From the NCBI RefSeq assembly GCF_001677475.2, contig NZ_CP015229.1: a stretch of 64,000 nucleotides of DNA. One strand, written 5' to 3'. The position numbers and the translations under genes were made by a program. Under the pieces are notes generated by a model. It was not told the origin of the DNA, searched no databases, and worked only from the letters and a program-made list of their open reading frames with translations. Positions 3,889 to 64,000 of the stretch are shown here, piece by piece. Each line of letters opens with the position of its first letter. Position 1 is the stretch's first letter. The DNA is from Escherichia coli. GTDB lineage: Bacteria > Pseudomonadota > Gammaproteobacteria > Enterobacterales > Enterobacteriaceae.

Positions 3889-6147
3889 TTACTCTTCGCT
3901 ATCACCACTGCTGGCACGGCGAGGAGAGTCGATCTCAACACGATCGATACGCTGCAAACCGCGCATCAACGTACCGCGGCGTCCACGTTCGCCAGTGACT
4001 TTCTGTAGCTCTTCCGGACGCAGTTTAATTTTGCGTTTCCCAACATGAATGGTCAGCGTGCTTTGCGGCGGCAGAACGTACAGTTGCGCAAGACCATCTT
4101 CTCCACGCGCGGCTTCTGCCGATGGAATGTTGATAATCTTGTTGCCTTTGCCCTTCGACAGCTGCGGCAGATCGCTTACCGGGAACATCAACATACGGCC
4201 TGCCTGAGTGATTGCCAGCAGCATATCGGAAGCATCTTCAATCACCACCGGCGGCATAACATGGGCATTTTCCGGTAAGGTGATCAAAGCTTTACCTGCA
4301 CGGTTACGCGCCACCAGATCGTTAAAGGTGCAGACGAAACCGTAACCCGCATCGGAAGCCATCAGCAGTTTCTGATCGTCGCTTTCCATCAGCATATGGT
4401 CAACGGTCGCCCCAGGCGGCAACGTTAATTTGCCGGTGAGCGGTTCGCCCTGACCACGCGCCGACGGCAGCGTAATCGGGTCAATGGCATAGCTACGACC
4501 GGTGGAATCAACAAACACTACCGGTTGGTTGCTCTTACCTTTCACCGCCGCTTTGAAGCTATCACCCGCTTTATAATTCAGGCCCGGCGCGTCGATATCA
4601 TGGCCTTTAGCGCTGCGTACCCAGCCCATCTGCGACAGCACAATAGTGACAGGTTCAGACGGCAGCATGTCGTGCTCGCTCATCGCTTTCGCTTCTTCGC
4701 GTTCCTGCAACGGCGAACGACGATCGTCACCGTAGGCTTGCGCGTCTGCCTGCAGTTCTTTCTTCAGCAGGTTATTCATTTTACGCTCGGAAGCCAAAAT
4801 GCCCTGCAACTGGTCGCGCTCTTTTTCCAGCTCACTCTGCTCACCGCGAATCTTCATCTCTTCCAGTTTGGCAAGATGACGCAGTTTCAGTTCGAGGATC
4901 GCTTCCGCCTGGGTTTCCGTAAGGCCAAACCGCGACATCAGCGCCGGTTTCGGTTCATCTTCATTACGAATGATCTCAATCACTTCGTCGATATTGAGAA
5001 ACGCCACCAGCAAACCTTCGAGGATATGCAGGCGCTTGAGGACTTTCTCCAGACGATAGTTCAGTCGGCGGCGCACGGTATCGCGGCGGAACACCAGCCA
5101 TTCAGAGAGGATTTCCAGCAGGTTTTTCACCGCCGGACGACCATCCAGACCGATCATATTGAGATTAATGCGATAGCTCTTTTCCAGATCGGTGGTAGCG
5201 AAGAGGTGGTTCATCACCTGATCCATATCCACGCGGTTGGAACGCGGCACAATCACCAGACGGGTCGGGTTCTCGTGGTCAGATTCATCGCGCAGATCGT
5301 CAACCATCGGCAGCTTTTTGTTGCGCATTTGCGCAGCAATTTGCTCCAGTACGCGCGCACCTGAAACCTGATGCGGCAATGCGCTGATAACCACCGCACC
5401 ATCTTCTTTCTTCCACACCGCGCGCATACGCACTGAACCACGTCCGTTCTCGTAGATTTTACGGATCTCGGCGCGCGAAGTGATAATTTCCGCTTCAGTC
5501 GGATAATCCGGCCCCTGCACGATATCCAGCAGCTGATCGAGCGTGGTTTTCGGCTGGTCGATTAATGCGATTGCCGCCTGAGCCACTTCACGCAGGTTAT
5601 GCGGTGGAATATCGGTCGCCATGCCGACGGCAATACCGGTGGTACCGTTAAGCAAAATGTTTGGCAGACGGGCAGGTAGCATTTTCGGCTCCTGCAAAGT
5701 GCCGTCGAAGTTTGGTACCCAGTCAGCCGTCCCCTGCCCCAGCTCGCTCAATAGCAGCTCGGAATATTTCGACAACCGGGATTCGGTGTAACGCATTGCC
5801 GCGAACGATTTCGGATCGTCCGGCGCGCCCCAGTTCCCCTGACCATCAACCAGCGGATAACGGTAAGAGAACGGCTGCGCCATCAGGACCATCGCTTCAT
5901 AACAGGCGCTATCGCCGTGCGGATGGTATTTACCCAGTACGTCACCGACTGTACGGGCCGATTTTTTAAATTTGGCGCTGGCATTCAGGCCCAGCTCAGA
6001 CATCGCATACACAATGCGGCGCTGAACAGGTTTCAGACCATCACCAATAAACGGCAACGCACGGTCCATGATCACGTACATGGAGTAGTTTAAGTAGGCG
6101 TTTTCCGTAAATTCATGTAGCGCAAGGCGCTCTGCCATATCGCTCAT
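3889..6147 (-). CDS. parC: DNA topoisomerase IV subunit A
   Basis: 752 aa; GyrA/ParC N-terminal signature ([17 protein letters not shown]). Confidence 0.95.
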
Positions 6148-12165: not shown

Positions 12166-13053
12166 TTAGCCATTCTTTCTTCCCGTTTTCAAACCCCGAT
12201 GGAAATCGTTAATTCGCTTAATGGTTTTAACCGCACGCTGCGGCATCGCGGAAGCCACCGACCAGACAATCATTTCCAGGCACAACAATACCGTACCATG
12301 TAGTGGCGTTTTCCCCTTTTCATCCCCGCGCGGAACATGAATCACGATACTGGCGTCTTTGCTAAAACGTGAATCCAGCGCGTTTGTCAGCAAAATAACA
12401 GGGATCCCCAGCCGCCTCGCCTCACGAAGCGTTGTCAGCCCTTCCCGGTGCGCAGATTTTTGCGCCATCATGATCAGAACATCGCCACGTTGAAGCGCGA
12501 TCAGTTGCTCGGCAAGGCCAATACCCGTACGGTTTAGTGCCGTGGCAGGCAAACCTATGCGGTTGAATAGTCGTGCGGTATAGTCCGCCAGAATACCCGA
12601 AGCGCCAATGCCAAAAATTGCGACTTGCCGTGCCTGCACCAACAACGCTACCGCTTGCGCAAGCGCGTGGCGGTTTTCAGGCTCTGACAGGACATTACAA
12701 GTATACAAATGCCCTTCAAGAACAAAGTCGATTGCGGTGTTAACATCGCTCGTCAAGTTACTCACCGTCGTAGACATCTTTTCGCTGGAACTAAGGGCTG
12801 GACCAAGCCACTGTTCCAGAGTGCGTCTCAGATCACGCAGCCCGGCAAACCCCAGAGCCTGTATAGCCCTGATAACTGTGGCATCGGAAGTGTTCAACGT
12901 GGCCGCAATTTCCATCGCCGTTTGCTCGAGTACCACTTCACGATGCTCATTAATGTAGCTTGCGACAGCTCTTAACCCAGGCGTTAACTGACTCGCGCGA
13001 GTGCGAAAACGCTCACCATAAATATCAACCCGCGTTTTGTCTTTCTGGATCAT
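12166..13053 (-). CDS. RpiR/MurR-family transcriptional regulator (HTH + SIS domain)
   Basis: 295 aa; N-terminal HTH and SIS-domain-like core; start codon overlaps stop of upstream binding-protein gene. Confidence 0.65.
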   Translation of the reverse strand: MIQKDKTRVDIYGERFRTRASQLTPGLRAVASYINEHREVVLEQTAMEIAATLNTSDATVIRAIQALGFAGLRDLRRTLEQWLGPALSSSEKMSTTVSNLTSDVNTAIDFVLEGHLYTCNVLSEPENRHALAQAVALLVQARQVAIFGIGASGILADYTARLFNRIGLPATALNRTGIGLAEQLIALQRGDVLIMMAQKSAHREGLTTLREARRLGIPVILLTNALDSRFSKDASIVIHVPRGDEKGKTPLHGTVLLCLEMIVWSVASAMPQRAVKTIKRINDFHRGLKTGRKNG

Positions 13054-48407: not shown

Positions 48408-49421
48408 TTACGCAGCCGGTAACTCCGCCAGCGGCCAGCGCGGACGCACGCTAACGCCGAGATCCGCCGTCGCGCCTGCTTTAAACCGCACCATTCCGGC
48501 ATAGGCGATCATCGCACCGTTATCGGTACAAAACTCCGGACGCGCGTAGAACACTTCGCCGCGGCGTTTTTTCATCATTTCAGCCAGCTTCGCCCGTAAC
48601 GTGCGGTTAGCACTCACGCCGCCTGCCATGACCAGTCGCTTAAAGCCAGTCTGATCCAGCGCTCGCTTACACTTAATCATCAACGTATCGACCACCGCAT
48701 CTTCAAAGGCACGGGCGATATCAGCACGCGTCTGGTCGTCGGTGCCGTTGTCACGAATGGTATTTGCCGCGAAGGTTTTCAGGCCGGAGAAGCTGAAATC
48801 CAGCCCCGGACGGTCGGTCATCGGACGCGGGAAGACAAAGCGCCCGGCAGTACCCTGAGCCGCCATTTTCGACAGCAGCGGCCCGCCTGGATAATCCAGC
48901 CCCAGCAGCTTCGCGGTTTTATCAAACGCTTCACCAGCGGCATCATCAATGGACTCGCCGAGCAGCTCATACTGACCAATGCCGGTAACGCTGATTAACT
49001 GCGTATGACCGCCGGAAACCAGCAGCGCGACAAACGGAAATTCCGGTGGGTTATCTTCCAGCATCGGCGCTAACAGATGCCCTTCCATATGGTGTACCGG
49101 GATTGCCGGAACGTCCCAGGCAAATGCCAGAGAACGCCCCACGGTCGCGCCAACCAACAGCGCGCCGACTAATCCAGGGCCTGCGGTATAGGTCACTGCG
49201 TCAATGTCTTTTGCCGTTAAACCAGACTCCTTTAGCGCCGCCTGGATCAACGGTACGGTTTTACGCACATGATCGCGGGAGGCCAGCTCAGGCACTACAC
49301 CGCCGTAGTCAGCGTGCAATTTCACCTGACTATACAATTGGTTGGCTAACAAACCTTTTTCATCGTCGTAAATGGCGATGCCGGTTTCATCGCAGGAAGT
49401 TTCAATACCCAGTACACGCAT
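48408..49421 (-). CDS. tsaD: tRNA N6-threonylcarbamoyladenosine synthase TsaD
   Basis: 337 aa; [19 protein letters not shown]. Confidence 0.9.
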
Positions 49422-54475: not shown

Positions 54476-54551
54476 GGCCCCTTAGCTCAGTGGTTAGAGC
54501 AGGCGACTCATAATCGCTTGGTCGCTGGTTCAAGTCCAGCAGGGGCCACCA
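54476..54551 (+). tRNA. ileX: tRNA-Ile2 (anticodon CAU, lysidine-modified), ileX-type
   Basis: 76-nt cloverleaf GGCCCCTTAGCTCAGTGGTTAGAGCAGGCGACTCATAATCGC...GGGGCCACCA with CAT anticodon and encoded CCA; differs from both Met tRNAs. Confidence 0.85.
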
Positions 54552-54909: not shown

Positions 54910-55652
54910 TGACAGCGTAACAAGCTCGGCCCAGCTTTCGCTGGGCCTCCCATTTCTACCTCCCAAAATCTATTAGAAACAATAAGCCACTAAAGAAAGA
55001 GCTTTTGCTGGCTACAATACTCACATACAAACAATTTTTATTTTTCGCGGGCGTAAAAAAACGATGGGGCTGGCAGTCCGGAAGACGTCAGGGTACAGAG
55101 ATTTGTACCCGCCTCTCCCTGTGCATGAGCACAATAAGTAACCGAAGGCGGAATTCCGCCCTCGGTACTCACATATGAGAAACGATATTTCTTCCACCGA
55201 TACCCTTTATTTGGGTATCGCGAGTAAGCCCCAAAATCTGGGTGTTACTCTTACTACCCAAACTACGGGTAGTTTCCGTAGTTTCATGGTCGAGTTGCAG
55301 ATCTGCAACTCACCCACCAGCCAACGCAATTTTGCGTTATCGGGAATATCAGCAAGTTACCGCCGCAGTCGTTCCGGCTTCTTCCACTGGTAAGTATTTT
55401 TCGCGCTCTCCCTCCGTTGTTGAGAACGGCGACGGTATGCCAGCAACTCAAGGACTCTGATCCGTATGTCGCGCATATCCACGCCGTTAAGCTCGATACC
55501 GTCACGGCGCATCATCTCTGCCACCACACGCGCGTAATTTTCGGCTATCACGCTGTCCGGCTGCGTGGCCTCCTATTTGCTTGATGGTTGTTTGATTCCG
55601 GTAACGCGGCGGATTAATCCCAGCAATTCAGATTCTGTCATAGTGCGCTACG

Positions 55653-55992
55653 TTACTTGTCTTTATTCGGCTGCAACTTATCCGGCACATTTCCGGTAGT
55701 TTCCATCAGGTAATCAGCCAGTATCTGTGGGAGGTTGTCGGCAACTCTGGCACTGGCATTACAGGCTTTAACCACTTCCCTTTTAAGCCCATCCAGCATA
55801 GCGGGGGTAATGTGTGGGAAGCTCCTTTGCATAGTAAGCGGGAGGCTGTCCATGATTGATGAAATCTGACTCGCCAGTTTTGAAAGCGCGTACATGCAAA
55901 ACTCTGTATCAATCACGTCACCGCGATCGCGCTCGTTTTTAAGTTCCTGCGCCTCCGCCTGTGCTGTCAGTAATCTGATCCTGACTCGTAAG
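55653..55992 (-). pseudogene. Nu1-like small terminase subunit, C-terminal fragment (gene split by IS insertion)
   Basis: Translation ...LLTAQAEAQELKNERDRGDVIDTEFCMYALSKLASQISSIMDSLPLTMQRSF... resembles the lambda Nu1 C-terminal half; frame is open up to the IS boundary. Confidence 0.7.
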
Positions 55993-56085
55993 TATGAGAC
56001 GACAATAACTCAGTCCGCCTGGCGCCGATTATTCTGGCCGGTTTTGTAACCTGAGTGTCATTTACATGATCCAACAGGAAATGGC

Positions 56086-57465
56086 GTGACGCTCAATACT
56101 TCTCAGGTCAGTTACTATATGACTCAGCGTAAGAAAGGTATAACTCAGCATATCTCGGCCATGAAGGCTGGTATCTCAGTCCGTTCTGGTCGTCGGATCG
56201 AAAAAGGAGAGTGGGCAAAAAACAGTGTTCGGCACTGGCGCACACGCAAAGATCCTCTGGAAGCTGTGTGGGACAGCATGCTTGTTCCTCTGTTGAAAGA
56301 GAGGCCGGCTCTGACACCAACAACTCTACTGGAGATGCTACAGGATAAATATCCCGGCCAGTACCCCAACAGCCTTCGAAGAACAATGCAACGGCGGGTT
56401 CGCGAATGGAAACTACAGTATGGTACAGAGCAGGAGGTCATGTTCCGCCAGCAACATCAGCCCGGCCTGCGAGGCCTGTCGGACTTTACTGAACTGAAAG
56501 GTGTAGTTGTCACCATCGCCGGTAAGTTGTTGGCGCATAAGTTGTATCACTTCCGTCTGGAATGGAGCCACTGGAGCTGGATGCGGGTTGTTCTGGGTGG
56601 TGAGAGCTTCTCTGCTCTGGCTGAAGGCCTGCAGGAAGCCCTCGGACAACTGGGCGGAGTGCCGGTAGAACATAAAACGGACAGCCTGAGGGCAGCATGG
56701 AAACAACAGGGCGAAGATGGACGCCGCGAGCTGACTGAGCGTTATGCTACTCTCTGTCAGCACTACGGAATGCAGGGCGTACACAATAATGCCGGTCGGG
56801 GCCACGAAAATGGCTCGGTTGAAAGTGCCCACGGACATCTGAAAAGGCGTATCTGTCAGGCGCTGATACTGCGGGGCAGTAACGACTTCAGCACCATAGA
56901 AGAATATCAGGCCTTCATCACTCAGCAGGTTATGCGGCACAACCGTAACAATCAGGATCTGGTCAAGGAAGAACGTCTTCATCTGAAACCGCTGCCGCTT
57001 CGTCGCAGTGCTGACTATGATGAGCTGACTGTGAGGGTTAGTCGCAGCAGTACCATCAATGTGAAGCACGTCGTCTACAGCGTACCTTCCCGGCTTGTAG
57101 GTCAACTGTTACGGGTCAGGTTATGGGACGATCGTCTGAGCTGTTACGTTGGCAGCAGCGAGGTCATGAGCTGCCCTCGCGTCAGACCAGAAAAAGGGAA
57201 GACGCGGGCCCGTCGTATCGACTTCCGACATGTGATCGACAGTCTGGCAAAAAAGCCCGGTGCGTTCTGCCATGCAACGCTGAGAAATGACATCCTGCCG
57301 GACGATGAATGGCGGAGGCTGTGGCGTCGCTTATGTAATCATCTGGAGCCCGATATGGCAGGAAGGCTGATGGTACATGCCGGGAAACGTGGATCTGCAC
57401 CGGCTGATGCGCTTCCTGGGTATAAAAGAAAAGGCGTTGCCGGTAGTCAATGTGATACAGCATAA
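56086..57465 (+). CDS. istA: IS21-family transposase IstA
   Basis: 459-aa ORF (GTG 56086; ATG at 56119 also possible); N-terminal HTH-like region and DDE-type catalytic core typical of IstA. Confidence 0.8.
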   Translation: MTLNTSQVSYYMTQRKKGITQHISAMKAGISVRSGRRIEKGEWAKNSVRHWRTRKDPLEAVWDSMLVPLLKERPALTPTTLLEMLQDKYPGQYPNSLRRTMQRRVREWKLQYGTEQEVMFRQQHQPGLRGLSDFTELKGVVVTIAGKLLAHKLYHFRLEWSHWSWMRVVLGGESFSALAEGLQEALGQLGGVPVEHKTDSLRAAWKQQGEDGRRELTERYATLCQHYGMQGVHNNAGRGHENGSVESAHGHLKRRICQALILRGSNDFSTIEEYQAFITQQVMRHNRNNQDLVKEERLHLKPLPLRRSADYDELTVRVSRSSTINVKHVVYSVPSRLVGQLLRVRLWDDRLSCYVGSSEVMSCPRVRPEKGKTRARRIDFRHVIDSLAKKPGAFCHATLRNDILPDDEWRRLWRRLCNHLEPDMAGRLMVHAGKRGSAPADALPGYKRKGVAGSQCDTA

Positions 57466-57510
57466 CCTGAGCAGTTATGAGCAACTACTGCGTGGCAAGG
57501 GAGGTTCGCA

Positions 57511-58266
57511 GTGAGCAATATCCATCACCTTGAACATAGCCTGCGTAAACTACGCCTGACACGAGTTGGAGCTGAATGGCACGCTCTGGAAAAACGAGCG
57601 CTGGCAGAAGGCTGGACACCATCGCGCTATCTTCTGACGCTATGCAATGAAGAACTCCTGTGGCGCGAGAGTGAAAAACTGCGTCGTTATAAAAAGGAGG
57701 CCCGGTTGCCAGTTGCCAAAACGCTGAGCGAATACGACTTCAGTCAGGTGCCGGAACTGAATGGAGCTCAGTTCCGGCAACTCTGTGAAACGACAGACTG
57801 GGTTGATGCAGGAGAAAACGTTCTGCTGTTCGGAGCCAGCGGGTTGGGGAAAAGCCATCTGGCGGCAGCGATCGTGGATGGCGTAGTAGGTCAGGGCTAC
57901 CGGGCCCGGTTCTACAGCGCAGGAGAGCTGTTGCAGGAACTACGTAAAGCCAGAGCTCAGTTGAAACTGAATGAGCTGCTACTGAAACTGGATCGCTACC
58001 GGGTGATAGTGGTGGATGATCTTGGCTATGTCAAACGCGATAGTGCCGAAACGGGTGTGCTGTTCGAGTTAATAGCGCATCGCTATGAACGTGGGAGCCT
58101 GGTGATAACCAGTAACCATCCGTTCAGCATGTGGGGCAGCATCTTCGTGGATGAGACTATGGCGGTGGCTGCGGCAGACAGGCTGATCCATCACGGATAT
58201 ATGTTCGAACTGAAAGGGGAAAGCTACAGGAAAAAGACAGCGAAGGCAGTAACAAGCGCGACTTGA
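57511..58266 (+). CDS. istB: IS21-family helper ATPase IstB
   Basis: 251 aa; Walker A FGASGLGKSHLA and Walker B VIVVDDLGY; GTG start with GGAGG RBS. Confidence 0.85.
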   Translation: MSNIHHLEHSLRKLRLTRVGAEWHALEKRALAEGWTPSRYLLTLCNEELLWRESEKLRRYKKEARLPVAKTLSEYDFSQVPELNGAQFRQLCETTDWVDAGENVLLFGASGLGKSHLAAAIVDGVVGQGYRARFYSAGELLQELRKARAQLKLNELLLKLDRYRVIVVDDLGYVKRDSAETGVLFELIAHRYERGSLVITSNHPFSMWGSIFVDETMAVAAADRLIHHGYMFELKGESYRKKTAKAVTSAT

Positions 58267-58331
58267 TGTCGCCCTGAAGGGTGCGGCCAGTATAGTTGGC
58301 GCGAGTCGGCAAAACTAGTTGACGTCTAATA

Positions 58332-58544
58332 TCGTAAGAGTTCATCATCATCAATCTCGCCTTTGTCGTTTGTAAGCTGGCTAATTGCATTGTTAACCCT
58401 ATTGTCTATCACGCTGGCAACATCATAAAACGCCTCACGGCCTTTACGTTCAACGGGAGTCACTCCCCACTTGTCGAATGCTGTAGCACTTACCCGGCAG
58501 CTTTGCGCCATGGTTTTTTTGTTCATCAGGTGCGATTTCATCAA
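58332..58544 (-). pseudogene. Nu1-like small terminase subunit, N-terminal fragment (gene split by IS insertion)
   Basis: MNKKTMAQSCRVSATAFDKWGVTPVERKGREAFYDVASVI... resembles lambda Nu1 N-terminal winged-helix region; frame runs into the IS and stops two codons inside it. Confidence 0.7.
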
Positions 58545-58639
58545 TATCCCAACTTGGTCAAGGTTTCAGGTTGGTGTGTTGGTGTTATCTTTCCCTTTTT
58601 ATTCATGGAGATAGAGCAAACAACAAAACCACCACCACC

Positions 58640-58725
58640 CCCCTGAAAAAGCTCATAAATAGCGAAAAACCGCGAGGTCGCCGCCCCGTAACGGGTCCAT
58701 ATGCCGGAAAGGACCCGTAAAAAAA
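58640..58725 (-). other. Lambda-type cos site (cosQ-cosN-cosB); cosN 12-nt cohesive-end sequence at 58675-58686
   Basis: Reverse strand reads ACGGGTCCTTTCCGGCATATGGACCCGTTACG-GGGCGGCGACCT-CGCGGTTTTTCGCTATTTATGAGC, near-identical to the lambda cos region as recalled; lies immediately upstream of the Nu1-like gene as in lambda. Confidence 0.7.
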
Positions 58726-58741
58726 GCCGGATTTCTCCGGC
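58719..58741 (-). terminator. Rho-independent terminator after the capsid operon
   Basis: Reverse strand stem GGCCGGAGAAATCCGGC followed by TTTTTTT. Confidence 0.5.
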
Positions 58742-58747
58742 CTTGTC

Positions 58748-59161
58748 TCAGATGGTTTTCAGTATGCGATCGATGTCGCCATCATCGCCCGGGTTTCTGC
58801 CAGCGTATGCCATACCAGCTGATACGGCTTTCGGGCTGTGCATGTCCATAAAGTTTTCAAAGGCTGCGGTAAGCTCTGGTGCAACCTTCTGGCGTTCCTG
58901 CTCTATGGTCATGCTAAGGATGCTTTTAGCCGTACCAACATCGATACAAGGCACGTTTGCCATTGCACGTAACAGCGGCTGATAGTCGCCAGATTCATCA
59001 AGCGCCATAATCGCATCAGAGCGCGGCTTGTCCTTCTCTTCCAGGCTGTTAAGTTGATATACGGCCTCGTAGGTTGATAAACCTCTGTCAGCCATTGCCC
59101 GCGCTTCGGCCTTAAATTTACTCGCCAGCGGTAGCGTCATGATGCTTTCATTCGTTGCCAT
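58748..59161 (-). CDS. Hypothetical 137-aa protein, last gene of the capsid operon
   Basis: Tightly packed 12 nt downstream of the D-like gene; no family recognised. Confidence 0.5.
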   Translation of the reverse strand: MATNESIMTLPLASKFKAEARAMADRGLSTYEAVYQLNSLEEKDKPRSDAIMALDESGDYQPLLRAMANVPCIDVGTAKSILSMTIEQERQKVAPELTAAFENFMDMHSPKAVSAGMAYAGRNPGDDGDIDRILKTI

Positions 59162-59173
59162 CGTTCCCTCTGC

Positions 59174-59509
59174 TTATCGGGCCAGTGGCTGAACGGATAC
59201 GCCAGAACCCGCAAAGGCGGCGCATTTTTTCGCATCGGTGTCGACGCTCTCAGGCCAGTTAACGGCGGCGATATTAAATATCCCCGTCTTATAGCACTGT
59301 GCTGATTTCTGCGTCGACGTGTCAACGGGGTACGAGGTCAGATAAACAGCCTTGCCAGATTCCTGACCATCCCACGGCTTAAACTCGCCATTTTCCGCCA
59401 GCATCAGCGGGGTAAATTCCTGAATAACTCCAGCATCAGCGGCAAAATGTACCAGCGTCGTGGATACCTGCTGACTGCCTGCAAATAACTCAATGTATGG
59501 AGTGTTCAT
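59174..59509 (-). CDS. Head decoration protein, lambda gpD-like
   Basis: 111 aa; shared blocks with lambda D as recalled (TPLML, WDG, YKxGxF, WPE, KKxAAFAG); size matches (lambda D 110 aa). Confidence 0.7.
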   Translation of the reverse strand: MNTPYIELFAGSQQVSTTLVHFAADAGVIQEFTPLMLAENGEFKPWDGQESGKAVYLTSYPVDTSTQKSAQCYKTGIFNIAAVNWPESVDTDAKKCAAFAGSGVSVQPLAR

Positions 59510-59520
59510 AGAATCCCCCG

Positions 59521-60576
59521 TTAAGCAATTTTGACGGTAACAAATTTGCGAATATCTGCCGGTACCGGCTGCGGTGCGCTGTGCGTCTGCACGTACTCAA
59601 TCGCCGGATCGCCATCCTCAATCCAGTTTTTCGGGTAGTACATGTTTTGCGTTGCGCCAGTTCTTACCGCTTCCGGATCCATAATCGCACCATAGGCCAC
59701 CAGCCCTTTATTGTTAGTGTTGCCCAGGACAAGCAAATCAGGCTCAAGGAAATATTTTTCGGTGCCATCGCTGTCGGTGTATTTGCCGGAATAGACGATA
59801 AGGGCCAGATCACCCAGATAGCCTTTAAAGCTCACCACTTCGCCCAGGTTTTTACAGGCCAGCTCTGCGGCGGATTCTGAACCACGGGAAAGATCGTACA
59901 GTTCACGGAATTTTTTAAAGCTGCGTAACGTGCGCCATACCTCAGCGCCCATAATCATGACGTTGGCGGGGCAACCAGCCTGATCGGTGTATAGTTCGAT
60001 GTCATAGATTGGATCGTGTGTTTCCTTATCTGCCTCAGACCACTTTTTGCCCGATCCCTGCGTAATGATGTTTTTAGTCGGGATTTTCCAGTCGATTTCG
60101 TATCTATTTATTCCTTCGCCCTCAATGATGTTTTTTCCGGTCGTGACCGCATTCACCGCCAGCCATTCTATGCGAGCTTTAATAGCGTTTACCTGGCGGC
60201 GCATGTTGCCAGTAATCAGGCGCATACGGCGATAAGTTGGATCGTTAAGCTGTGCCGGATCTTCTCCAGCCATGCGCATGATGGTTTTTGATGGATCGAT
60301 TTCGTGTTTTGGTTTCATATAGCCAGGGCGGATAGTGCTTGTTTCGTACCCTTTATCGCGCTGAACCTGACTCCCCACCATAGGCGAACAAAAAGCCGAC
60401 ATGGTGACTTCTTCAATATCCAGGGTATCTAACATGATGTCCTGCGTGTTGAAGGTTGCCACGTTCGGGAAAAACAGCGACGTAAACAGCGGACTGAATT
60501 TAAATTCCGAAATATCCCCACGATTCAGGTACGCGAAAAGCTGGTTAGTGTTAAGTGCCGTTGCTTTGCCTGTCAT
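59521..60576 (-). CDS. Major capsid protein, lambda gpE-like
   Basis: 351 aa; blocks FKFSPLFTSLFF and PGYMKPKHEIDP, YPKNWIEDGDPA, SAPQP match lambda E motifs (FKFDPLFLRLFF, PGYVKPKHEVNP, YPKNWVTTGDPA, SAPLM) as recalled; similar length. Confidence 0.85.
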   Translation of the reverse strand: MTGKATALNTNQLFAYLNRGDISEFKFSPLFTSLFFPNVATFNTQDIMLDTLDIEEVTMSAFCSPMVGSQVQRDKGYETSTIRPGYMKPKHEIDPSKTIMRMAGEDPAQLNDPTYRRMRLITGNMRRQVNAIKARIEWLAVNAVTTGKNIIEGEGINRYEIDWKIPTKNIITQGSGKKWSEADKETHDPIYDIELYTDQAGCPANVMIMGAEVWRTLRSFKKFRELYDLSRGSESAAELACKNLGEVVSFKGYLGDLALIVYSGKYTDSDGTEKYFLEPDLLVLGNTNNKGLVAYGAIMDPEAVRTGATQNMYYPKNWIEDGDPAIEYVQTHSAPQPVPADIRKFVTVKIA

Positions 60577-63818: not shown

Positions 63819-64000
63819 GCGGCAATCATGTTTTTCAGTTCCTGTAGTTTTTTATCAACATCCATACATGACACATGGTTATTTCTGGAAGGCGGGATTT
63901 CCCGCCGGAATCTGCAAATAAAGATCTCCACGTTCAGCGAGCTATGAAATGAATAGCCATCACGAATAAAATACACACGGTCAAACATTATCGATTTTAC

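Follow-up and report, generated by a model that had tools for sequence, protein, structure and literature searches.

A small-terminase-encoding phage-inducible island of Escherichia coli with a composite cos site: lambda-like cosQ and cosN beside a cosB that is not that of lambda

The cos site described here lies on the minus strand of a 64,000-nucleotide stretch of an Escherichia coli chromosome (contig NZ_CP015229.1; hereafter the window), within a region (58569-58742) upstream of a gene for a small terminase subunit (TerS). It belongs to an island that begins right after a tRNA gene (54476-54551, plus strand; anticodon CAT, annotated as tRNA-Ile in a relative), next to mug, and runs off the window at 64000. 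This tRNA forms the only chromosomal flank visible in the window; relatives of the island have an integrase. A block of head genes (58748-60576, minus strand) comprises a gpE-like capsid gene (59521-60576), a gpD-like decoration gene (59174-59509) and an open reading frame (ORF) of 137 amino acids (58748-59161). After the cos site come TerS, a small ORF and the tRNA, with no large terminase (TerL) gene adjoining.

The order of the head genes is the same in the islands EcCICFT073 and EcCIIHE3034, and a relative in strain A33 reads terminase small subunit, 137-aa ORF, head decoration, major capsid, single-stranded DNA-binding protein (SSB), primase, DUF4222 and Icd-like gene. The window also has the gene order of a cos-type phage-inducible chromosomal island (PICI), namely primase-SSB-capsid E-decoration D-small ORF-cos-specificity gene, together with the combination of helper-type cosQ and cosN with a non-helper cosB that is a trait of the EcCICFT073 family. 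Judged by gene content and synteny, the host element is a Gram-negative PICI of the EcCICFT073/EcCIIHE3034 family at tRNA-Ile/mug, in keeping with an earlier note on this DNA, which had placed the site on an island. The set of a capsid-forming PICI (its own TerL, portal, protease and connectors) was not found; only capsid E, decoration D, the 137-aa ORF and TerS are present. TerS has no TerL gene beside it, whether in the portion of the island that the window covers, in 89 loci from the IMG/VR database or in the genomic loci (about 100 relatives), and no relative examined has a TerL or portal of its own, so that a helper phage must provide TerL.

On the minus strand the site reads TGA GACAA GGCCGGAGAAATCCGGC TTTTTTT ACGGGTCCTTTCCGGCATATGGACCCGTTACG (nick) GGGCGGCGACCT CGCGGTTTTTCGCTATTTATGAG CTTTTTCAGGGG GGTGGTGGTGGTTTTGTTGTT TGCTCTATCTCCATGAATAAAAAGGGAAAGATAA CACCAACACACCAACC TGAAACCTTGACCAAGTTGGGATATTG ATG. 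A terminator-like hairpin, GGCCGGA-GAAA-TCCGGC (58726-58742, minus strand, as read from the sequence only), followed by seven T (58719-58725), lies 3' of the 137-aa ORF, abuts cosQ and is conserved in EcCICFT073 cos1 and EcCIIHE3034; a simple terminator scan did not flag this hairpin upstream of cosQ and flagged cosN itself instead. The cosQ heptamer GGGTCCT (58710-58716, minus strand; -30 to -24 from the nick) corresponds to lambda 48473-48479. The 12-nt cohesive-end sequence of cosN, GGGCGGCGACCT (+1 to +12), occupies 58675-58686 (minus strand), and nicks here would make the ends of the packaged DNA, as the earlier note had proposed. The cosN-proximal spacer that follows, CGCGGTTTTTCGCTATTTATGAG (+13 to +35; 58652-58674, minus strand), is common to lambda, phage 21, N15, EcCICFT073 and all relatives and overlaps the position of the phage 21 integration host factor (IHF) site I2 (annotated +30 to +44).

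Comparison with lambda was anchored on the nick, using the genome ends of NC_001416. From -32 to -15, cosQ included, the two are identical (18/18); they have diverged from -14 to -7, agree again from -6 to -1 (6/6) and match at 33 of 34 positions from +1 to +34 (39/40 overall for -6 to +34), the sole difference in the latter stretch, G18T, being the phage-21 state. From +35 onward, identity to lambda is at the random or background level. The earlier note had described a near-exact lambda cosQ-cosN-cosB site at 58640-58725 and had proposed an alignment to the lambda ends. The strings it quoted from the reverse strand are all in place at 58653-58686 and in the 5' flank, ACGGGTCC...GTTACG directly 5' of cosN and CGCGGTTTTTCGCTATTTATGA directly 3' (58653-58674), and the alignment bears out cosQ, cosN and the spacer, but not cosB: the string taken for cosB is the spacer between cosN and cosB, and the functional site appears to reach beyond 58640-58725, down to about 58569.

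The bare 12-mer is weak evidence alone, with 0.29 matches expected per window at one mismatch or fewer. The 66-nt pattern of cosQ, cosN and spacer is found in the window with 0 mismatches, and none of 100 shuffles matches it even when three mismatches are allowed. A blastn search of 50,697 phage records gave 95 matches, all confined to about -37 to +46. The match of cosQ, cosN and spacer to lambda is not due to chance. Of 80 IMG/VR relatives, 59 have the 12-mer GGGCGGCGACCT in this position; across the 80, nine or more 12-mer variants of cosN accompany the same cosB. A perfect 8-bp inverted repeat (ACGGGTCC ... GGACCCGT; 58691-58718, minus strand) brackets the cosQ-to-cosN interval, with cosQ mirrored just before the nick; it is kept in EcCICFT073 cos1 and EcCIIHE3034 and is not present in lambda, phage 21 or satellites embedded in portal genes. 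No second cosN (a cos2, as in EcCICFT073 and EcCIIHE3034) was found within the window at one mismatch or fewer.

A string search of the window site found none of the lambda R3, R2 and R1 sequences, nor any R1 equivalent; in lambda the same kind of search places R3 at 53-68, R2 at 108-123 and R1 at 155-170 (R3 is placed at 50-65 in the literature; PMC9026076). Conservation and position point to two candidate boxes. Block A, GGTGGTGGTGGTTTTGTTGTT (+48 to +68; 58619-58639, minus strand), is a candidate R3, and block B, CACCAACACACCAACC (+103 to +118; 58569-58584, minus strand), opposite to it in orientation, is a candidate R2; an A/T-rich, poorly conserved spacer (+69 to +102; 58585-58618, minus strand) separates them. 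Seven lineages, drawn from E. coli, Enterobacter/Citrobacter-type relatives and metagenomes and having TerS identities from 100% down to 57%, were aligned from cos to ATG. Between-lineage identity is 94% for +23 to +35, 88% for block A (+50 to +67, 72% invariant), 83% for cosN, 74% for the cosQ block and 73% for block B (+104 to +118), and falls to 29-54% in the segments between and after the blocks (42-54% in the flanks of block A, 37-54% in those of block B); the blocks are conserved even between lineages whose TerS proteins are only 57-59% identical.

Block A occupies the position of R3 in lambda and phage 21 (annotated +50 to +65 in the latter), and block B that of R2 (108-123 in lambda; annotated +107 to +122 in phage 21). 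The start of the core GGTGGTGGTTTTGTTGTT is at a fixed distance from the nick in 79 of the 80 IMG/VR relatives, and in most E. coli relatives the two blocks form an 11/12 inverted repeat, a score reached by one of 300 shuffles. R3 of N15 was mapped by linker scanning to bp 48-60 (PMC9026076) and reads GAGGTTGTTGTTT, at the same place and with the same G/T-rich character as block A. The lack of an R1 equivalent fits the shorter distance from nick to ATG, 145 bp against 190 in lambda. The island cosB would consist of two G/T-rich blocks of an N15-like type, not that of lambda, to which TerS is predicted to bind. An I1 (IHF) site is not claimed, nothing at 8/9 or better having been found between the blocks.

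The Nu1-like ORF has its ATG at 58541, 145 bp after the nick, so that the site lies directly upstream of it, as the earlier note had it. Its 5' fragment (58332-58541, minus strand; codons 1-70, the DNA-binding domain) runs into an insertion sequence (IS) and stops after one extra codon; its 3' fragment (55653-55992, minus strand) holds the oligomerisation segment and the C-terminal, presumably TerL-binding, half. The insertion between them is of ISEc10 type (IS21 family; 2,339 bp, 55993-58331, plus strand), carries istA (56086-57465) and istB (57511-58266), is flanked by a 7-bp target duplication, TCGTAAG (55986-55992 and 58332-58338), and is 98.2-98.7% identical to the ISEc10 copy of CFT073. 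Removal of the IS and one copy of the duplication restores an intact 543-nt ORF for a TerS of 180 aa. The junction recurs in none of 5,426 complete E. coli genomes, suggesting that the insertion was a recent, strain-specific event. Since TerS is split after codon 70, the specific packaging of the island has probably been lost: the cos DNA of the window is intact, the cognate recognition protein is very probably inactive and the island is probably poorly mobilisable. The packaging prediction of the earlier note had been made without this split, and in the window strain we would expect, at best, inefficient packaging by helper terminase alone.

The restored TerS is collinear with gpNu1 over its full length (37% identity, E = 1e-35); Pfam Phage_Nu1 (PF07471) matches residues 63-147 and phrog_57, 'terminase small subunit', residues 1-176. 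Against RppA, the adaptor of EcCICFT073, blastp returned no significant similarity (E = 2.7). A sequence search of the PDB with the island TerS gave chance-level matches only, neither Nu1 (1J9I) nor Rpp (6HLK/6HN7) being among them; NCBIfam assigned no family to TerS or the 137-aa ORF, and a TerS peptide scan of one-genome-per-species contigs found no relative. The AlphaFold2 (AF2) topology of the N-terminal region is beta-alpha-alpha-hairpin-alpha, with a predicted local distance difference test score (pLDDT) of 72-81. The closest phage TerS among the 50,697 records is N15 gp1 (47.5% overall), which carries the same motif in its DNA-binding domain (DBD); in this domain the island protein is 61% identical to N15 gp1, 37% to lambda and 28% to phage 21. 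In the central segment conservation with Nu1 and gp1 is strong (R..L..AQA.AQELKN being invariant), and the C-terminal half is 35-51% identical to the C-terminal halves of phage TerS proteins. The reconstructed window TerS and that of the A33 relative (L004) are 100% identical over residues 1-100 and only 78% over residues 101-167, and two alleles of the C-terminal part (…ACNACTKLDENIP… and …ACNASARVADNLP…) are found repeatedly in relatives, which suggests recombination within the gene, possibly tied to the TerL type of the helper.

The module of cos and TerS is present in 707 of 5,426 complete E. coli genomes and that of cosB and rppA in 97, which makes the TerS type about seven times commoner as counted at megablast sensitivity, at which more diverged RppC may be missed. 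All 89 IMG/VR loci with the signature of cos plus block A have a satellite layout. A natural mosaic occurs in locus L008, an island at the EcCICFT073 site next to phoQ: its TerS (5001-5585), a 194-aa variant, is an N-terminal half of phage 21 (96-100% identical) fused to a C-terminal half of island type (99%). The cos in the 190 bp upstream of this gene carries a cosB of 21/lambda-like type, with three R boxes and a spacing of 189 bp. This mosaic indicates that DBD type and cosB type change together while the C-terminal half stays of island type. CFT073 also holds a lambdoid prophage with a phage-21-type TerS, which was used as a reference.

Contig L097 holds a helper together with a satellite inserted into its portal gene. 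This helper carries the lambda Nu1, the lambda R3, R2 and R1 and a gpA N-terminus 100% identical to that of lambda; its satellite has the cosQ block and spacer in common with it, but a block-A cosB and an island TerS. The cohesive ends of the two differ, being GGGCGGAAGGCG in the helper (cos at about 12310-12550, reverse strand) and GGGCGGCGACCT in the satellite (near 172-216). Many relatives are likewise embedded in a late gene of a lambdoid prophage: those inside capsid gene E are L010-L015 and L024-L032, and those inside the portal gene are L042, L048, L063, L078, L096, L097, L101, L103, L104, L108 and L111; all of these helper-embedded satellites carry a Nu1-type TerS. The capsid-gene-E insertion type has been described, with an example said to lack terS (bioRxiv 10.1101/2022.07.18.500453). 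The cassette is not wholly specific to islands: N15 and the helper prophage of L063 have related DBDs and G/T-rich R boxes.

We propose, with a probability of about 0.65, that the region is a PICI packaging (cos) site of the EcCICFT073/EcCIIHE3034 family, with a cosB read by the TerS of the island and cutting by the TerL of a helper. In sequence the architecture is composite: the part on which TerL would act (cosQ, cosN and +13 to +35) is lambda/21-like, and the part that TerS would read (cosB) is not that of lambda. After induction of the helper and replication of the island, the island TerS would bind blocks A and B (R3/R2-like), its C-terminal half would recruit the gpA-type TerL of the helper, this TerL would nick cosN, and the concatemer would be packaged into helper-derived particles until the next cosQ/cosN. 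The earlier expectation of a lambda-type terminase supplied in trans would then hold for TerL, not encoded beside TerS in the island or in about 100 relatives, but not for TerS, which the island family encodes and which appears matched to its own cosB.

A number of observations weigh against this proposal. Both the binding of TerS to blocks A and B and that of its C-terminus to helper TerL are what we infer from sequence. For the N-terminal fold the evidence is weak (AF2 pLDDT 72), and a Foldseek search of the PDB with the TerS model gave no match at E ≤ 0.001, only weak ones to MerR-type winged helix-turn-helix (wHTH) domains. Identity of the C-terminal half to its counterparts in lambda, N15 and phage 21 is only 35-40%, and embedded satellites are found in helpers with lambda-type and with 21-type TerL, so that it is hard to see how one C-terminal module could fit both. 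In the window the A/B inverted repeat reaches only 10/12, and an IHF consensus scan of the island cosB returned nothing at 8/9 or better, a score that lambda I1 attained (8/9). N15 and lambda are reported to share packaging specificity despite different R3 sequences (PMC9026076), so that the model may overstate how private the island cosB is. Finally, neither of the two TerS-encoding islands in the 2018 tests underwent transfer by its resident prophages (PMC6092414).

Other explanations fit parts of these data. The island TerS might act in the manner of Rpp, forming a heteromer with helper TerS that poisons helper packaging and retargets it to the island cosB, with helper TerS still bringing TerL. 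The TerS gene occupies the exact position of rppA in EcCICFT073, for which the Rpp precedent exists (PMC6739421), and the central self-association segment is the part strongly conserved with Nu1 and gp1; we nevertheless consider this mode possible but doubtful, since TerS is of full length, aligns with Nu1 to the C-terminus and has no detectable similarity to RppA, whereas Rpp proteins have 144-153 aa and are thought to be without a TerL-binding tail (PMC9026076). It is unlikely that the site is a complete lambda cos, recognised as lambda DNA by a holoterminase made of helper TerS and TerL in trans: the lambda R3, R2 and R1 are absent, identity collapses from +35, phage matches stop at about +46, and the island family keeps its own TerS with a conserved and different cosB. 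The near-identity of cosQ, cosN and spacer to lambda does favour such recognition, as does the finding that lambda and phi80 still transfer plasmids with EcCICFT073 cos sites, though these have no phage cosB and the frequency is reduced (PMC6092414, PMC6739421); with TerS broken, this low-efficiency route may be the sole one left in the window strain.

Blocks A and B could also be operator or activator sites, or an RNA leader, for TerS expression, leaving cos as cosQ and cosN only. A scan of 58300-59000 gave no sigma-70-like promoter on the minus strand, the stretch from the terminator-like hairpin to the start of TerS included, and with that hairpin standing before cosQ the expression of TerS needs some other intergenic signal. 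The blocks, however, keep a fixed distance from the nick, at the places taken by R3/R2 in lambda and phage 21 and by the mapped R3 in N15, and they change together with the TerS DBD in the L008 mosaic, all of which makes a purely regulatory role quite improbable. That the locus is an inert relic, a decayed lambdoid prophage fragment of cos and a Nu1 remnant with no packaging role, might be suspected from the IS-disrupted TerS and from an island that runs off the end of the window, yet this is scarcely credible: the order capsid-decoration-cos-TerS without TerL is a satellite layout and not that of a phage, it is conserved in the 707 E. coli genomes and 89 IMG/VR contigs noted above, and the ORF is intact once the IS is removed, its unshared junction fitting a recent event.

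Further observations concern the other ORFs of the island and its copy number. The 137-aa ORF (58748-59161, minus strand) is annotated 'head-tail connector' by the Prokaryotic Genome Annotation Pipeline, matches phrog_1999 and gives a weak match, at profile positions 494-568 of 583, to the C-terminal part of phrog_53, a family of head maturation proteases. In lambda that C-terminal region of the protease is the Nu3 scaffold. Together with the gpE- and gpD-like genes the ORF may form the island's own capsid and scaffold set. The small ORF between TerS and the tRNA (64 aa; 55357-55551, minus strand) matches phrog_1561, of unknown function, and, as compared by eye, appears to match the sequence targeted by a published EcCI18098 marker-insertion primer. 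In strain A33 two tandem island copies (L004 9706-15502 and 20159-24686) stand beside the same tRNA-Ile, with many genes annotated as frameshifted.

The principle of a lambda-like cosQ and cosN joined to a non-lambda cosB has already been published for EcCICFT073, and the window island is an IS-damaged member of a known family. The residual novelty lies in the TerS-type cassette, which is commoner than the Rpp type and was listed in 2018 without characterisation: that survey recorded that the IHE3034 and 18098 islands 'encode TerS' and that those of CFT073 and O42 do not, and only EcCICFT073 was transferred (PMC6092414). A characterised cos PICI with a full-length TerS, or later work on the TerS subgroup, was not found in the literature, subscription-only papers being outside the scope of the search. 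The broader proposal, that TerS-type PICIs carry a self-contained cassette of a private R3/R2-type cosB and a full-length Nu1-family TerS, with a C-terminal module specific to the islands, that recruits helper TerL directly and bypasses helper TerS, and that the DBD half and cosB pass together between the islands and phages of N15, 21 and lambda type, seems to us evenly poised; it would constitute a third mechanism of packaging piracy in Gram-negative satellites. So far the Rpp adaptor is the one mechanism elucidated for classical Gram-negative PICIs. The present analysis outlines how a common class of E. coli satellites appears to be set up for packaging: it borrows its cutting signals from lambdoid helpers and has its own recognition signals and recognition protein. 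The candidate R-box coordinates and the natural domain-swap variants provide concrete reagents.

Among described islands the closest relative is EcCIIHE3034, for which coordinates have been published and whose TerS is identical to that of the window at 167 of 180 residues and whose cosQ-cosN-cosB is nearly base-for-base identical. Its integration site is cspD-clpS, as against tRNA-Ile/mug in the window, and it has a second, inverted cosQ-cosN copy downstream of TerS (L023 10045-10110) that the window lacks. EcCIIHE3034 and EcCI18098 share the gene order of the window; a further difference is that the window TerS is IS-disrupted. EcCICFT073 (NC_004431, 1.378-1.389 Mb) is syntenic, with cos1 in the same gap and an almost identical run of terminator, cosQ, cosN and spacer, but the gene after cos1 is the 144-aa rppA, where the window has a 180-aa TerS of the Nu1 family; the latter, longer and collinear with Nu1, is not of the Rpp type, whose members have about 135-153 aa and a wHTH but no tail for binding TerL. 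In EcCICFT073, cosQ and cosN resemble those of lambda and phi80, no phage cosB is present and a heterocomplex of Rpp and TerS reads the island cosB (PMC6092414, PMC6739421). That cosB has one proposed box, R3-PICI, at +48 to +65, and 102 bp from nick to ATG, as against two blocks and 145 bp in the window. The (GGT)n core of block A (58619-58639) is the reverse complement of the ACCACCACCAC core of R3-PICI (L007 27606-27623): the motif lies at the same distance from the nick as block A, but opposite to it in orientation and in that of window block B. The cos2 of EcCICFT073 (L007 28298, minus strand) has no counterpart in the window.

The likeness to lambda extends to the cosQ heptamer, the 12-nt cohesive end, the flanks, the spacer to +34 and the place upstream of a Nu1 homologue; R3, I1, R2 and R1 and a gene A after TerS are missing, and TerS is only 37% identical. 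N15 resembles the island in its DBD (61% identical) and in a G/T-rich R3 at the same distance from the nick, but differs in having a single R3, 88 bp from nick to ATG and the cohesive end GGGCGGCGTCCG; the C-terminal half of its TerS is of lambda type (83% identical to Nu1), whereas that of the island is a distinct type (39-40%). Staphylococcus aureus pathogenicity islands (SaPIs) of the pac type use their own TerS to redirect the large terminase of the helper for headful packaging, and SaPIbov5 carries the complete cos of its helper and no TerS (PMC6739421). The proteins and hosts of SaPIs are unrelated to those of the window island; the parallels are that the satellite supplies its own small terminase, as in the former, and carries the cutting site of the helper, as in the latter. 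By this analogy, the cassette of the window island would do in a cos system what the TerS of SaPIs does in a pac system, and would stand beside the Rpp adaptor of EcCICFT073 as an alternative strategy.

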